From a virus: a DNA stretch of 5,145 nt. Below are positions 908-4,891 of this stretch, piece after piece. A model generated the notes under the pieces. The model saw only the letters and a program-made list of their open reading frames with translations. It did not search any database and was not told where the DNA came from. The position numbers and the translations under genes were made by a program. Position 1 is the first letter of the stretch. The number at the start of each line of letters is the position of its first letter. The stretch is taken from the IMG/VR virus record IMGVR_UViG_3300026522_000019. The stretch is one strand, 5' to 3'.

Positions 908-1786
908 TCACTTAAGAGCGCTAAAAGGCATCCAGCGCAATAATTCACCCATAGACGTGCCAAAACGATGAGCATAGCCGGTTTTGATATCCTGGACAGA
1001 CTGTTCCTGTTCATTAGCAAGTTTAATCCGGAGAGAATCTTCAAGGGTACGTTGAGAATCAGCATCAAGATTAGCCGCACGAGCCATATTTTCAGCAGTA
1101 CCAGAGGCCAAATTATCAATTTCATAAGGAGTCAATTGCTGAAGCCTGGACAATTCGCCATAGGACTTAGCAGCTAACGCAGATGCAGCACCTGCCTGTG
1201 CAAGGTTAGCCTCAGAACGGGTACCTAGTTCAGCAACCTGGGCATCAGTAATACGCCGACTATTTTCAATATCCTGGAGAATTTTATTGATATTAGCATC
1301 AGCTACCTTAACCTGCATTTTAAAAACTTCAGTCTGTTGTTTAGCCTGGGCAGTAAGAGCAGAGATATTATCCGCTTTAAGCGGTATAAGGGAAGTTTCA
1401 CCCTGCACCTGCGAGGTCTGAGCAGATTTGAGTTTAGTATCCTGTAATACGTTTGAAGCTTCGGCACGGGTCTTTTCAATATCAGCCTTGATAGCTTCAT
1501 TCTGCATCTGTAAATTTTTAGCCTGCTGGGTAACCATATAACCAGATGTCGCGGCAGTACCAAGGTTCTCATAAGTGCCGCCACTAGAAACACCGAAAGT
1601 ACTATTACCAGTATTAGCCGACAGAATAGGATTGAGACCAGCGGCTTTTAAATCAGCTACTTCAATTTGATGCTGATTATAAAGCTGTTCATTGGCAAGG
1701 TTATAATTTTTATTAAATTGCTTCTGCTGTTGGCGGTTAGCCAACAAACCGCCAACAAAATTAGCGGCAACACCCAACCAAGACAT
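908..1786 (-). CDS. VP2: Minor capsid / DNA pilot protein VP2 (292 aa)
   Basis: Track ORF. It sits immediately downstream of VP1. SD GAGGTG lies 7 nt before the ATG. It has a Gly/Ala-rich hydrophobic N-terminus, an AAGLNPIL motif and a long Gln/Ala-rich helical middle, typical of microvirus pilot proteins. The TGA stop is embedded in the SD of the next gene. Confidence 0.85.
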   Translation of the reverse strand: MSWLGVAANFVGGLLANRQQQKQFNKNYNLANEQLYNQHQIEVADLKAAGLNPILSANTGNSTFGVSSGGTYENLGTAATSGYMVTQQAKNLQMQNEAIKADIEKTRAEASNVLQDTKLKSAQTSQVQGETSLIPLKADNISALTAQAKQQTEVFKMQVKVADANINKILQDIENSRRITDAQVAELGTRSEANLAQAGAASALAAKSYGELSRLQQLTPYEIDNLASGTAENMARAANLDADSQRTLEDSLRIKLANEQEQSVQDIKTGYAHRFGTSMGELLRWMPFSALK

Positions 1787-1801: not shown

Positions 1802-3439
1802 TTAGAAGTGGTCAACAAGACCAGGGACACCGTAAACCGGCATAGGACGGGCACACTTCATCTGGATATAGCTATCAATAATGAACTGAGGTTCATCCTG
1901 GACTGCGAGTATTCGAGACACTGGCGGATTATCTTCAATAAACTGAGCTGAAAGCGTCGGAAGACTATCAAATTTCTGGGAAAGATGCCAAACATCAAGA
2001 CTCTGAGGGTCAGTAGACCTAAGTTTACCAGTAATCATAGAAGGAAAATAACGATATTCTGCATATCTTTCCTGATAACCAAATACATCATCATCAACAG
2101 GTTTACCCTGGGCAAAAATTTCCTTATTAAGAATCGCCTGTTCACCAAGATGCGCAAGTACGGGCCAATAGAAATCAAAGCGTGTGCGACGGCTAAACAT
2201 GCGCGGAATACCCTGCTGGTAAGTGAGGTCAGCACGAACATTAAGGAGACCAATAACAATACCATGTTCAACGAAAGATTTAGTAAAACCATGCTTAGCA
2301 GAAGTACTAGAAGCAAGACCATATGCAGCAAGGTTACCCTGCGGAGTATCTGCGTCTCTAGCAGTCGCAGAGTTCTGGACTACCGGATTGATAATAACAG
2401 GGCTTTCAGAGCCGCCAAGATATTCAGGACGCTGTAGGCGACTATCCGGAGAAACAACGCCAAAGTGAGAGCGGAGAATCTCAGTATAACGAGTACCGCC
2501 ACGGGCATCACGTTCGTAAAGTTTCTGAAGCTGGAAGGCCTGGCGGAGAGAATTGATAGTGGCAGCTGTTACAGAAGATAAATCAGCATACATAGGGCCA
2601 GTAGTAGCACCAGAACCCACGTTGGGGGGAAAGGGAGTATTCAAAAAAATACGGTCATCATAATTAGCAGGTTTAAAAAGAGCAAGATTTGTGTTAGTAA
2701 CCGTAGATTTAACCGTAGGCTGGAAATGCGTAGCATTAAAAGTACCACCATCAACAGTAACCGGAGCATTTCCGGAAAGGGGAAGCTCTACGCCCGGGCC
2801 TTTCTGAGGCCACGGAAGCGCGCTAGTAAAATAATCATGACGCTTTCCACGTCTCAGGAGCTTATGAAAGCCAGTATAACCAGCATCACCAAGGCCAACA
2901 TCATCCAAACCGGAAGCAGATGCAATCTCAGCGAAAGAAGAAAGATTAATAGGATTCTGAAGATTTTCATCCCTAAACCATTCATTCCAGATAAGCGCAT
3001 ACGCTCTAGCGGCTAATTCATTAGCTTTAATACCTTTGACGCCAGTCGGTAAACCAAAATAATCTTCAAGAGAGCCAACCGGGAAACCTTTATCAGCCGG
3101 AGCGGTTGTCTGAGGTACAAGATAATCAGTCTGGGCACCGGGATAATCCTGCTGACCATTAAACTGTTCCCAGTGTTTCCAAAGCAAGCGATAAGGGACG
3201 AAGAAAAAAAACGTATCAATAAACAGATTATCCATCGTAGGGACGATAGGAGTAGAAAGACGAGCTAAAAAATTAAACTTAACCTTGTAGGAGTCACCGG
3301 GAAGCACTTCATCCACAAGAAACGGCACAAGATAACCGCTATCGAAAGTACTTTTCCAGCCGTGAGACCTATCAAAGACAGACCGGGAGATTTGAGCTCG
3401 AGGAATCTGCGAAAATAAATGCTTCATGACTGACTTCAT
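1802..3439 (-). CDS. VP1: Major capsid protein VP1 (phiX174 F-like), 545 aa
   Basis: Track ORF with SD AAAGGA 8 nt upstream. Hallmark microvirus capsid motifs are present: FSQIPRAQISRSVFDRSH, YLVPFLVDEVLPGD, FFFFVPYRLLW, ALPWPQKG, TINSLRQAFQLQKLYERDARGGTRYTEILRSHFGV, and RFDFYWP. Confidence 0.97.
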   Translation of the reverse strand: MKSVMKHLFSQIPRAQISRSVFDRSHGWKSTFDSGYLVPFLVDEVLPGDSYKVKFNFLARLSTPIVPTMDNLFIDTFFFFVPYRLLWKHWEQFNGQQDYPGAQTDYLVPQTTAPADKGFPVGSLEDYFGLPTGVKGIKANELAARAYALIWNEWFRDENLQNPINLSSFAEIASASGLDDVGLGDAGYTGFHKLLRRGKRHDYFTSALPWPQKGPGVELPLSGNAPVTVDGGTFNATHFQPTVKSTVTNTNLALFKPANYDDRIFLNTPFPPNVGSGATTGPMYADLSSVTAATINSLRQAFQLQKLYERDARGGTRYTEILRSHFGVVSPDSRLQRPEYLGGSESPVIINPVVQNSATARDADTPQGNLAAYGLASSTSAKHGFTKSFVEHGIVIGLLNVRADLTYQQGIPRMFSRRTRFDFYWPVLAHLGEQAILNKEIFAQGKPVDDDVFGYQERYAEYRYFPSMITGKLRSTDPQSLDVWHLSQKFDSLPTLSAQFIEDNPPVSRILAVQDEPQFIIDSYIQMKCARPMPVYGVPGLVDHF

Positions 3440-3600: not shown

Positions 3601-4044
3601 TCAATTTACTTCTTTACCGGAACCTTCAACAGGTCCGGAAGGTACTTCAGGAGCACCGTCAACAGGTTTGTCAATAATTCCAAGCCTAATTGCTTCAGCA
3701 TATTCATCACTTCCTTCCTTAAGAGACTGAACGAACTGGAAATAGGCGGCTGGATCATTTCCAAATCGTTCGCGAATTTTACTTGAAAGGTGACCAAATG
3801 CATTATTAGCCGCCACTATGACATTCTGAGCCTCCTGGTAAGAAGGCATTTCAGAAAAATCACCAAATTGAGGAACACGAGACACCGGTACAGTAGGGTC
3901 TACAAGTACACCGGTAGTCTCAAAACGCGAAATAATAGAGTTAATATCCGCATCATCTTTAAAAGACTGAAGCGTCTGGGAAGGCTGGTCAAACACAATA
4001 CCAGGCTTTTCGCCGGTAACAGAATAACGAGATTTAAATTTCAT
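3601..4044 (-). CDS. VP3: Internal scaffolding protein VP3 (147 aa)
   Basis: ATG 4044-4042 is preceded by GGAAAGGAAG. Translation starts MKFKSRYSVTGEKPGIVFDQPSQTLQSFKDDADINSIISRFETTG...FGDFSEMPSYQEAQNVI. Size, acidic character, position just upstream of VP1 and these motifs fit gokushovirus VP3. The 176-aa track ORF begins at a GTG (4131) with no SD, so I prefer the internal ATG. Confidence 0.82.
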   Translation of the reverse strand: MKFKSRYSVTGEKPGIVFDQPSQTLQSFKDDADINSIISRFETTGVLVDPTVPVSRVPQFGDFSEMPSYQEAQNVIVAANNAFGHLSSKIRERFGNDPAAYFQFVQSLKEGSDEYAEAIRLGIIDKPVDGAPEVPSGPVEGSGKEVN

Positions 4045-4246
4045 GATCTTCCTTTCCGCGCGGATCCGCGCTGCAAGTATCTGCAAATAAACTAGTAGGT
4101 TTAAAATTACTACTAGTAAAACAGGCACCACAATTTAAACAAACAGAGATATAGTCGTCAACGTGATACAAAACGCATTGACAATACTCACAACGATCGA
4201 TACCGTCAAATACAAAACGCTTAAAAGCAGGAGGAACTTTAAGCAT
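4034..4246 (-). CDS. Hypothetical 70-aa Cys-rich (zinc-ribbon-like) protein, accessory ORF between the non-coding hub and VP3
   Basis: ATG 4246-4244 is the first start after an in-frame TGA. The Cys pattern is C19-x2-C22-x-C24 ... C36-x2-C39-x2-C42, with 7 Cys and 2 His in 70 aa. 42 of 70 codons end in T, versus 26 of the first 60 VP1 codons and 6 of 29 in the competing frame. It overlaps the VP3 start by 11 nt, as real microvirus genes often do. Weakness: the only SD-like AAGGA is 14 nt upstream. Confidence 0.5.
   Translation of the reverse strand: MLKVPPAFKRFVFDGIDRCEYCQCVLYHVDDYISVCLNCGACFTSSNFKPTSLFADTCSADPRGKEDHEI
4058..4071. repeat. Perfect 14-bp GC-rich palindrome GCGCGGATCCGCGC just upstream of the VP3 ribosome-binding site
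   Basis: The sequence is self-complementary by direct reading. It can form a 5-bp GC stem with a GATC loop. It lies 3 nt from the VP3 SD, inside the 3' end of the Cys-rich ORF. Confidence 0.7.
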
Positions 4247-4262
4247 GACATTAAATCACATC

Positions 4263-4275
4263 CTTAGGCTAATAA
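4263..4275. repeat. 13-bp direct repeat CTTAGGCTAATAA, copy 1, on the Cys-rich-ORF-proximal flank of the tandem array
   Basis: Identical to 4395-4407. Separated from the array only by CATG. Confidence 0.85.
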
Positions 4276-4279
4276 CATG

Positions 4280-4394
4280 CCAGGAACTTTCCAGGAACTT
4301 TCCAGGAACTTTTCCAGGAACTTTCCAGGAACTTTTCCAGGAACTTTCCAGGAACTTTTCCAAGAACTTTTCCAGGAACTTTTCCAGGAACTTT
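4280..4394. repeat. Tandem array of 10 units of CCAGGAACTTT(T); the sense strand reads (A)AAAGTTCCTGG
   Basis: Unit lengths are 11,11,12,11,12,11,12,12,12,11, totalling 115 bp. There is a single substitution (G->A at 4363, unit 8). Each junction creates TTCCAGGAA, a TTCC-N-GGAA dyad. Nine units carry CCWGG. Confidence 0.95.
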
Positions 4395-4407
4395 CTTAGG
4401 CTAATAA
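4395..4407. repeat. 13-bp direct repeat CTTAGGCTAATAA, copy 2, abutting the last tandem unit
   Basis: Identical to 4263-4275. Confidence 0.85.
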
Positions 4408-4489
4408 TGGGGGGAACATGCCGCAAGTCATTAGAGAAGTTAAACAACAAAACAGACAAAAGCAAGAAAAACGCGGCATTTCCCCCCAT
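4407..4489. repeat. Long inverted repeat: ATGGGGGGAACATGCCGC (4407-4424) pairs with GCGGCATTTCCCCCCAT (4473-4489); 17 bp with a one-base bulge, 48-nt loop
   Basis: The reverse complement of the second arm equals the first arm except for the extra C at 4417. The arms contain G6 and C6 runs. The loop is A-rich on the plus strand and T-rich on the sense strand. Confidence 0.8.
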
Positions 4490-4493
4490 GCCC

Positions 4494-4506
4494 CTAGGGC
4501 TAATAA
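4494..4506. repeat. Variant third copy of the 13-bp motif (CTAGGGCTAATAA, 11/13 identical), between the long inverted repeat and the terminator
   Basis: Read by eye. It shares GGCTAATAA exactly with the other two copies. Confidence 0.6.
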
Positions 4507-4507
4507 G

Positions 4508-4541
4508 GGAAAAAGAAAACACCGCCGTATGGCGGCGGTGT
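4508..4541 (-). terminator. Rho-independent terminator for minus-strand transcription, 57 nt downstream of the VP5-like ORF
   Basis: The sense strand reads ACACCGCCG-CCATA-CGGCGGTGT (9-bp stem, 7 G:C, 5-nt loop; 4541->4519) followed immediately by TTTTCTTTTTCCC. On the plus strand the hairpin has no T-tail, so it is directional and matches the gene orientation. Confidence 0.7.
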
Positions 4542-4597
4542 CGGGTGTCACCATACGAAAAGAGAAAACAGTATAACGGCAGCACCCAGGAGGAAAA

Positions 4598-4891
4598 TTA
4601 GGCCTCGTCCGAATCTCGGGCAAAGCTCGGACGAGTAAGATGATACTTGTCATAAAGGTCCGAAACGGAACAAATCAGTTTTGGGGACTTAATAGTAGAA
4701 ACAACCATAGAATCACGGTCGAAATCACAAATTTTATAAATGTCGTAATCTTCCGGGAAAGTACCAAAAATAGTCGTACCATTAATGAGCATACTCTGAA
4801 CAAACCAACGCTCAAATTCCTCAACATTTACGGCATCCTTAACAAACACAGAAAAAGCAGTTTTACGATCGCGAAGTGCAAAGATTTCCAT
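4598..4891 (-). CDS. 97-aa conserved-looking non-structural protein (VP5/ORF5-like by position and size)
   Basis: Track ORF. ATG 4891-4889 is preceded by GAGAGGAAAA, and the VP4 TGA stop lies inside this SD. Translation starts MEIFALRDRKTAFSVF...EEFERWF...FPEDYDIYKICDFDRDS. This resembles the small protein that follows VP4 in many gokushovirus genomes. That family resemblance is recalled, not searched. Confidence 0.7.
   Translation of the reverse strand: MEIFALRDRKTAFSVFVKDAVNVEEFERWFVQSMLINGTTIFGTFPEDYDIYKICDFDRDSMVVSTIKSPKLICSVSDLYDKYHLTRPSFARDSDEA

Follow-up and report, generated by a model that had tools for sequence, protein, structure and literature searches.

In plasmid R1, the ten 11-bp ParR-binding repeats of the parC centromere are split into two sets of five around the parMR promoter, and they act together with the adjacent parM and parR genes. 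Rep iterons hold a conserved position and co-vary with their Rep, and the operator arrays of OmpR/PhoB-type regulators (e.g. pho boxes) keep a strict 10-11-bp phasing, usually with two to six units placed before the regulated promoter. The origin of microviruses is not known to use iterons, and the literature on tandem and direct repeats in Microviridae and gokushoviruses yielded no relevant description. Here, we analyze a tandem array of ten short units in a microvirus genome. The window, by which we mean the whole stretch of DNA that was analyzed, is 5145 nt long. A first-pass annotation of this window, made from the sequence alone, had proposed that the array could be an iteron set, a parC-like centromere, an operator or a protein-titrating RNA.

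Genome and gene context

The window holds the circular genome of a gut gokushovirus strain, 5018 nt plus a terminal redundancy of 127 nt (5145 nt in all). Every gene of the window lies on its minus strand, which by Microviridae convention we take to be both the packaged strand and the mRNA sense. The genome has the features of the Gokushovirinae, namely a Phage_F capsid protein, a Chlamy_scaf scaffold protein, an ORF5 protein, a rolling-circle Rep and a circular genome of ~4.5-5 kb. The Rep family match, REP_ORF2-G2P, was obtained on an exact copy of the window's VP4 in L064. Gut and vaginal gokushoviruses are the closest GenBank records (~83% identity), and the size of the array-bearing genome fits the range of the clade (4852-5149 nt and above). 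With VP1, VP3 and VP5 matching Phage_F, Chlamy_scaf and Phage_ORF5, and with the array lying between VP5 and ORF70, the microvirus intergenic setting given by the first-pass annotation is confirmed. A host call via Escherichia coli prophages was tried and rejected: their VP1 is only ~70-72% identical at the nucleotide level, and they have another gene layout without ORF70 or the hub. The features of the window are:

774 down to 1, continuing 5018 down to 4902, minus strand: VP4/Rep, 296 aa
777-896, minus strand: small basic protein
908-1786, minus strand: VP2
1802-3439, minus strand: VP1, Phage_F match (E = 2.5e-182)
3601-4044, minus strand: VP3, Chlamy_scaf match
4034-4246, minus strand: ORF70, Cys-rich protein of 70 aa
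4263-4275: 13-bp direct repeat copy A, CTTAGGCTAATAA (gene sense TTATTAGCCTAAG)
4276-4279: CATG linker, joining the array to the promoter-distal 13-bp repeat copy
4280-4394, no strand: tandem array, ten units of CCAGGAACTTT(T), from TRF and direct unit listing
4395-4407: 13-bp direct repeat copy B
4407-4489, minus strand: conserved hub hairpin, arms ATGGGGGGAAATGCCGC / GCGGCATGTTCCCCCCAT, loop of ~50 nt
4494-4506: third, degenerate 13-bp repeat copy, CTAGGGCTAATAA, on the opposite side of the hairpin
4518-4542, minus strand: intrinsic-terminator-like hairpin with T-run, directly downstream of VP5
4598-4891, minus strand: VP5, Phage_ORF5 match, upstream of the hub

In gene sense, the hub runs from the VP5 stop through the terminator-like hairpin with its T-run (4542-4518), TTATTAGCCCTAGG and the large hairpin (4489-4407) to TTATTAGCCTAAG, the array, CATG, a second TTATTAGCCTAAG and the GATGTGATTTAATGTC-ATG of ORF70. 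The large hairpin is kept in every relative; across 15 relatives it has 15 conserved pairs that include an invariant G6/C6 run and two compensatory GC<->CG pairs. Its loop holds conserved TTGTCT and TTAAC motifs. The hairpin could act in priming or as a single-strand origin, or could belong to the plus-strand origin region. A search of the hub in the window and the relatives placed no conserved sigma-70-type promoter match. ORF70, which follows the hub, is conserved and overlaps the start of VP3; it carries a CxxC...CxxC pattern and has no Pfam or PHROG family match. Its homologues fall into at least 60 clusters, all confined to this gokushovirus clade.

Structure of the array

TRF and a direct listing of the units bore out the description given in the first-pass annotation. 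The ten units stand head to tail, with starts at 4280, 4291, 4302, 4314, 4325, 4337, 4348, 4360, 4372 and 4384 and with unit lengths, as claimed, of 11, 11, 12, 11, 12, 11, 12, 12, 12 and 11 nt. A single substitution is present in the 115 nt, the G->A change at 4363 that gives unit 8 the sequence CCAAGAAC. The gene-sense (minus-strand) reading of the array is AAAGTTCCTGG / AAAAGTTCCTGG. TRF described it with a period of 12 in 9.9 copies (score 195) as well as with a period of 23 in 5.0 copies (score 209). Nine occurrences of TTCCNGGAA were counted in the window, eight of them within the array, where 0.10 are expected from dinucleotide-preserving shuffles and none of 200 shuffles reached nine. 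The ten-unit repeat is far beyond chance: as in a minisatellite, a short unit is present in head-to-tail copies that are non-random both by TRF and by the dyad count (nine against 0.10 expected).

The near-palindrome that had been noted at the unit boundaries is likewise present, as a TTCCAGGAA dyad at eight of the nine junctions, and every unit has UCCU together with an A3-4 tract at 11.5-bp phasing. The mean period of ~11.5 bp, described earlier as about one helical turn, is confirmed, but the units do not share one face of the DNA, as successive units are rotated by ~34 degrees (at 10.5 bp per turn). We also found a feature that the first-pass annotation did not describe, a block of three perfect 23-nt (12+11) super-units in the middle of the array. 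The units at the array edges are unlike one another, with T-runs of varying length and one G->A change; those flanking the super-units are older.

Two further points on the unit sequence were set aside. One was the idea that the CCWGG (Dcm/EcoRII) site found in every unit matters; outside the array, the genome is not depleted of such sites (13 against a rough estimate of ~10). A complementarity of 13 out of 15 positions between the array and VP5 (4751-4765) was judged to be chance, since by rough estimate ~0.2 such matches are expected per genome.

The array is non-coding, as had been argued from its mixture of 11- and 12-nt units, which breaks any reading frame. Two assemblies of the genome differ within the array by 46 nt, which is not a multiple of three, and the sister strains are without it. 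The units thus do not preserve a frame, and the relatives have no conserved ORF across this position. Open reading frames do cross the array, but solely for want of a stop codon in all three frames of the unit; the 46-nt length difference breaks them, and they are missing in the sisters.

A 132-nt insertion with a flanking duplication

A perfect 13-bp direct repeat, CTTAGGCTAATAA, brackets the array at 4263-4275 and 4395-4407, and was missed by the first-pass annotation. Copy A retains the ancestral junction to the Shine-Dalgarno sequence of ORF70 (TAAGGATG) and copy B retains the ancestral junction to the 3' arm of the conserved hairpin (CCCCCCATTATTAGC), so that both junctions, hairpin-ATTATTAGC and TTATTAGCCTAAGGATG-ORF70, are intact after the duplication. 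The virus would tolerate the insertion because the 13-bp duplication keeps both of these junctions. In the relatives the 13-bp repeat is a single copy. The degenerate copy at 4494-4506 is ancestral and is also found in the sister strains. The CATG linker is missing in all relatives and belongs to the insertion, which, measured against every relative, consists of the array, CATG and the second 13-bp TTATTAGCCTAAG, 132 nt altogether. According to the ORF list and the protein family matches, there is no new gene within or alongside these 132 nt.

The motif TTATTAGCC(C)TA(A/G)G, in gene sense, lies on both sides of the hub hairpin throughout the sub-clade, array-less sisters included, and is the sequence that was duplicated by the array insertion. 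Speculatively, it could mark a recombination or nick/termination hotspot.

Comparison with related genomes

The array is absent from ~30 relatives (four from GenBank, ~20 from IMG/VR and four from ENA/Logan, L217-L220) that have the same hairpin, ATTATYAGC motif, ribosome-binding site and ORF70 start. In these genomes ATTATYAGC, the Shine-Dalgarno sequence and the ORF70 ATG come in this order after the hairpin's 3' arm, i.e. ...GGTTCCCCCCATTATYAGC-(SD)-ATG(ORF70), with 22-27 nt between hairpin and ATG. The nearest lineages found (L218-L220) are array-less at 92-94% nucleotide identity. Their spacer between VP5 and ORF70 measures 218-222 nt in comparison with 351 nt in the window, a difference of ~132 nt, and their proteins are nearly those of the window, with 290 of 296 residues identical in VP4 (98%), 91 of 97 in VP5 (94%) and 137 of 147 in VP3. 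Because these sisters do not have the 132-nt insertion, it is younger than the split from them. This lineage-specific presence between unique flanks that are conserved in ~30 relatives, the 92-94% sisters included, is again what is seen of minisatellites.

We found no sister with the array in the exact-protein index or in the 90% clusters of ORF70 and VP5, where it is carried only by 100%-identical copies. The first-pass annotation had suggested searching microvirus genomes and metagenomes for arrays at this junction and for the unit itself, and no comparable array came to light. Scans with an exact two-unit pattern found none in IMG/VR, none in 241 million metagenome records and none in 185,579 bacterial and archaeal species genomes (one per species), and they returned neither a donor sequence nor a second microvirus with the array. 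What the two-unit scans did return elsewhere were single chance or coding matches and, in marine and GC-rich phage contigs unrelated to this genome, short tandem runs of the unit. TRF on 38 + 80 gokushovirus loci (~118, ~520 kb) gave no array with a score >53, in comparison with 195-209 here, which agrees with the earlier remark that such an array is unusual for microviruses.

Four IMG/VR relatives (L233, L249 (=L084), L251 and L256) have a different insertion of ~48 nt at the exact position of the array, 3' of GTTCCCCCCATTATYAGC. This insertion forms two small hairpins, whose stems differ compensatorily between L256 and the other three. From these sequence comparisons, the spot between the hub hairpin and the Shine-Dalgarno sequence of ORF70 appears to be a recurrent, permissive insertion site.

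A tandem duplication of another kind was seen in a related gokushovirus from cat faeces, KT264828.1 (L004), where a perfect 158-nt x 2 duplication lies inside VP4 at 2947-3264; the split annotation of VP4-1 and VP4-2 in that record is due to this duplication. Unless it is an assembly artefact, it suggests that genomes of the clade can carry tandem duplications.

The unit itself recurs in other settings. In GC-rich marine contigs, three to five strict 11-bp copies of CCAGGAACTTT stand right after TTGACATAG (L009 at ~663-700; L023 at ~9869 and ~10594, minus strand; L035 at ~1079, minus strand). They are followed downstream by AAAGATnnn repeats and then by four to five copies of an 11-bp TTGCAGTTGCA repeat, and the whole stretch occurs twice within 725 bp in L023; it looks like a composite multi-repeat intergenic module. 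In two GC-rich IMG/VR phage contigs (L001 13-45 and L002 7537-7570), 2.7 units of CCAGGAACTTT precede, by ~45 nt, an ATG that has a good Shine-Dalgarno sequence. This position is operator-like and unrelated to microviruses.

Copy number and assembly support

The genome was recovered in two further assemblies. The ENA record ERZ27252042 (MEGAHIT, circular, 141-nt redundancy) has 4972 unique nt with 0 mismatches to the window, and its sole difference is a 46-nt gap in the array that removes two 23-nt super-units and leaves six units. A Logan k=31 contig (SRR7971120) is 100% identical and reaches past unit 5 of the array to end within the following unit; the break point fits a longer version of the array. 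An outright artefact is unlikely because the three assemblers (a JGI-type contig, MEGAHIT and Logan) concur on the array, on the order of its 11- and 12-nt units and on the G->A variant. The three assemblies may derive from one sample or read set.

The copy number is not secure. The 10- and 6-unit assemblies are otherwise identical, and the 6-unit form equals the longer one with its three perfect 23-mers collapsed to one. The difference may be real copy-number variation or assembly collapse. The Logan contig (L303) also breaks inside ORF70, where it starts at window position 4219. The sisters have >31 nt of identical sequence downstream of this position, which suggests the presence of a second, related strain in that sample.

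Origin of the array

We consider it probable that the array is a young, strain-private and slippage-prone minisatellite (VNTR) at an insertion-tolerant spot, without a dedicated function. It would have arisen in the stretch that separates the conserved hub hairpin from the ORF70 ribosome-binding site, and would have grown by duplication and slipped-strand mispairing during rolling-circle/ssDNA replication. The latest growth came in 23-nt (12+11) steps, the central block of 3 x 23 nt marking the newest expansion. As a single strand the array can form many alternative GGAA/TTCC mini-hairpins. It folds better than shuffles, with z = -4.4 as RNA, with an open centroid and competing registers, and z = -6.3 in the DNA context. 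Such self-complementarity would be a ready substrate for slippage, and an ssDNA rolling-circle replicon an ideal setting for it. On this reading the array would be passenger DNA in a non-coding leader, altering at most the spacing from hub to ORF70.

A possible source of the first unit lies close by. The degenerate unit GAGGAACTTT reported earlier is indeed present at 4231-4240, where it covers the K V P P codons (3-6) of the minus-strand ORF70 (4034-4246). These codons (AAAGTTCCTCC, 4230-4240) and the repeat unit have the 9-mer AAAGTTCCT in common, which falls in codons 3-5 at a distance of 40 nt from the array (p ~0.02 by simulation). Since the array-less sisters have this 9-mer too, its presence in ORF70 is older than the array. 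The seed unit may have been copied locally from these codons, although a p of ~0.02 is suggestive only. The GG-CATG junction was not derivable from the sister sequence by a simple single-step duplication model.

The insertion is at least not lethal, because the array-bearing genome assembled as a complete circle and was recovered by three assemblers. Its non-conservation indicates that the clade does not need the array and is silent on any role within this strain. Two points speak against a minisatellite without function. Selection in a compact ssDNA genome of 5 kb might well remove 132 bases of no use, so that their retention could point to a benefit, and a near-helical period with a TTCCNGGAA dyad is the expected look of a binding array.

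Alternative explanations

One alternative, unlikely but credible, is that the array is a copy-number-tunable cis-regulatory leader, or promoter-upstream element, of the ORF70-VP3-VP1-VP2 transcript, whose output would be tuned in 23-nt steps. The array could act by moving the hairpin off the ORF70 ribosome-binding site, by an anti-SD-like pairing of UCCU with the AAGGA Shine-Dalgarno sequence or by DNA bending through the phased A3-4 tracts. Its location is right for such a role, exactly between the terminator-like and hub hairpins on one side and the ORF70 SD/ATG on the other, and the UCCU and A3-4 tract at 11.5-bp phasing recur in each unit. In the predicted fold, the last unit pairs with the 13-bp repeat copy that lies near the SD, and four relatives have another structured insertion at the same site. 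The pairings in question are just 4 bp long, though, the same operon is expressed array-free in the relatives, and the search for a conserved sigma-70-type promoter placed no match in the hub. The possible difference between six and ten units in otherwise identical genomes would suit a tunable element, but a form in which three perfect 23-mers are collapsed to one is also a typical de Bruijn artefact.

In a broader form, which we hold to be rather unlikely, the array would be a new functional module of variable copy number, such as a leader or DNA platform. It would serve to recruit or titrate a DNA- or RNA-binding factor of the host, or to tune the structural genes in 23-nt steps, and would have been born at a recurrent insertion hotspot beside a putative origin hairpin.

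It is quite improbable that the array serves as a platform for protein binding, be it as a roadblock, titration sink, iteron set or parC-like centromere. A dimeric or head-to-tail DNA-binding protein would then coat it, the candidates being VP4, VP5, ORF70 and host factors such as an OmpR/PhoB-type response regulator. This was the main idea of the first-pass annotation. In its favour are the ten direct repeats, spaced 11.5 bp apart on average, the TTCCAGGAA dyad at eight of nine junctions and the adjacent conserved hairpin, and operator-like roles are plausible for CCAGGAACTTT in the marine arrays of three to five units and in the 2.7 units before a phage-contig gene. Comparison with the relatives weighs against it. 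No relative examined has the array, not even the sisters, whose VP4 and VP5 are 98% and 94% identical to those of the window, and its absence beside near-identical proteins argues that no phage protein co-evolved with it. Iterons are expected at a conserved position and in co-variation with Rep; here the sisters whose VP4 is identical at 290 of 296 positions are repeat-free. A centromere of the parC type has adjacent genes for a ParR adaptor and a ParM/ParA motor, and the ORFs of the window include neither of these nor any other gene brought by the insertion, all being standard gokushovirus genes. With units of 11 and 12 bp irregularly mixed, the register drifts by 5 bp from one end of the array to the other and sites are rotated by ~34 degrees per unit, and the unit is not known to match a bacterial operator consensus. 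An iteron or centromere should be conserved or accompanied by its binder, and the array is neither; the comparative evidence does not support the iteron, centromere or operator proposed earlier.

We regard it as very improbable that the array arose, wholly or for most of its copies, during assembly or amplification and is missing from the viral population. The three recoveries are 100% identical outside the array and may stem from one read set, the copy number is ten, six or cut short by a contig break, and nothing similar appeared in the IMG/VR, metagenome or species-genome scans. Against this, each of the three assemblers recovered at least 5-6 units, with the same 11/12 order and the same G->A variant, and de Bruijn assemblers collapse repeats rather than invent them. 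Both versions of the array (115 and 69 nt) are shorter than the overlaps of their own contigs (127 and 141 nt) and so, with the overlap taken as the assembly k, should be spanned by single k-mers. The clean 13-bp flanking duplication with its intact junctions also resembles a biological insertion.

Finally, a protein-titrating RNA, in which the array transcript (sense CUGGAAA, antisense CAGGAAC) would sponge a GGA-binding regulator such as CsrA/RsmA, is extremely implausible. The 115 nt do contain ten GGA triplets, and CAGGAAC, the antisense unit, is similar to the CsrB repeat cores. Yet the best Rfam scores are 24 and 21 bits against gathering thresholds of 64 and 100 and belong to unrelated families (the 24-bit match being eukaryotic), the self-paired repeat places GGA in GGAA/UUCC stems and not in hairpin loops, with an open centroid, no convincing promoter for an antisense transcript was found in the hub, and the relatives are without the array.

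Implications

If the minisatellite reading is true, a 132-nt minisatellite can arise and be carried in a highly compact ssDNA phage genome, and the stretch from the hub hairpin to the ORF70 ribosome-binding site is a natural insertion-tolerant site that has been used at least twice independently. Such a site could serve for gokushovirus engineering or barcode insertion, and the array would be a hypervariable marker for tracking the strain. If the functional-module reading were true instead, this would be the first contingency-like locus described in Microviridae, and a minimal virus would give a seldom-available view of how a regulatory or binding array arises.

Comparison with known systems

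The locus shares single traits with several known systems. The CsrB/RsmY sponge RNAs resemble it in having many GGA motifs in a short non-coding stretch, but the array has no Rfam match and its GGA motifs are not in hairpin loops. The likeness to OmpR/PhoB operator arrays would lie in a core of ~7 bp with a 4-5-bp A/T spacer and a period of ~11 bp; the spacing here, however, alternates between 11 and 12 bp, and the unit is not known to match a consensus. Plasmid R1 parC has the same number of repeats (10) and a unit of ~11 bp, whereas the array is contiguous, mixes 11 and 12 bp, lacks partition genes and is absent from relatives. Like the Rep iterons of theta and rolling-circle plasmids and of CRESS-DNA viruses, the array consists of direct repeats beside a conserved stem-loop in a hub; unlike them, it is absent in strains with 98%-identical VP4. 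On the minisatellite reading, direct repeats at a helical period with a dyad are insufficient to call an iteron or a centromere.

The closest likeness is to the minisatellites, VNTRs and contingency repeats of bacteria and phages. These share with the array short head-to-tail units, near-perfect homogeneity and growth in steps of a unit or super-unit, as well as strain-specific presence, a short flanking direct repeat, a non-coding location and possible differences in copy number. The array differs from them in its setting, a 5-kb ssDNA microvirus, where tandem-repeat insertions of this kind are rare (no other such array in ~118 gokushovirus loci), and in having no phase-variable gene demonstrably coupled to it.
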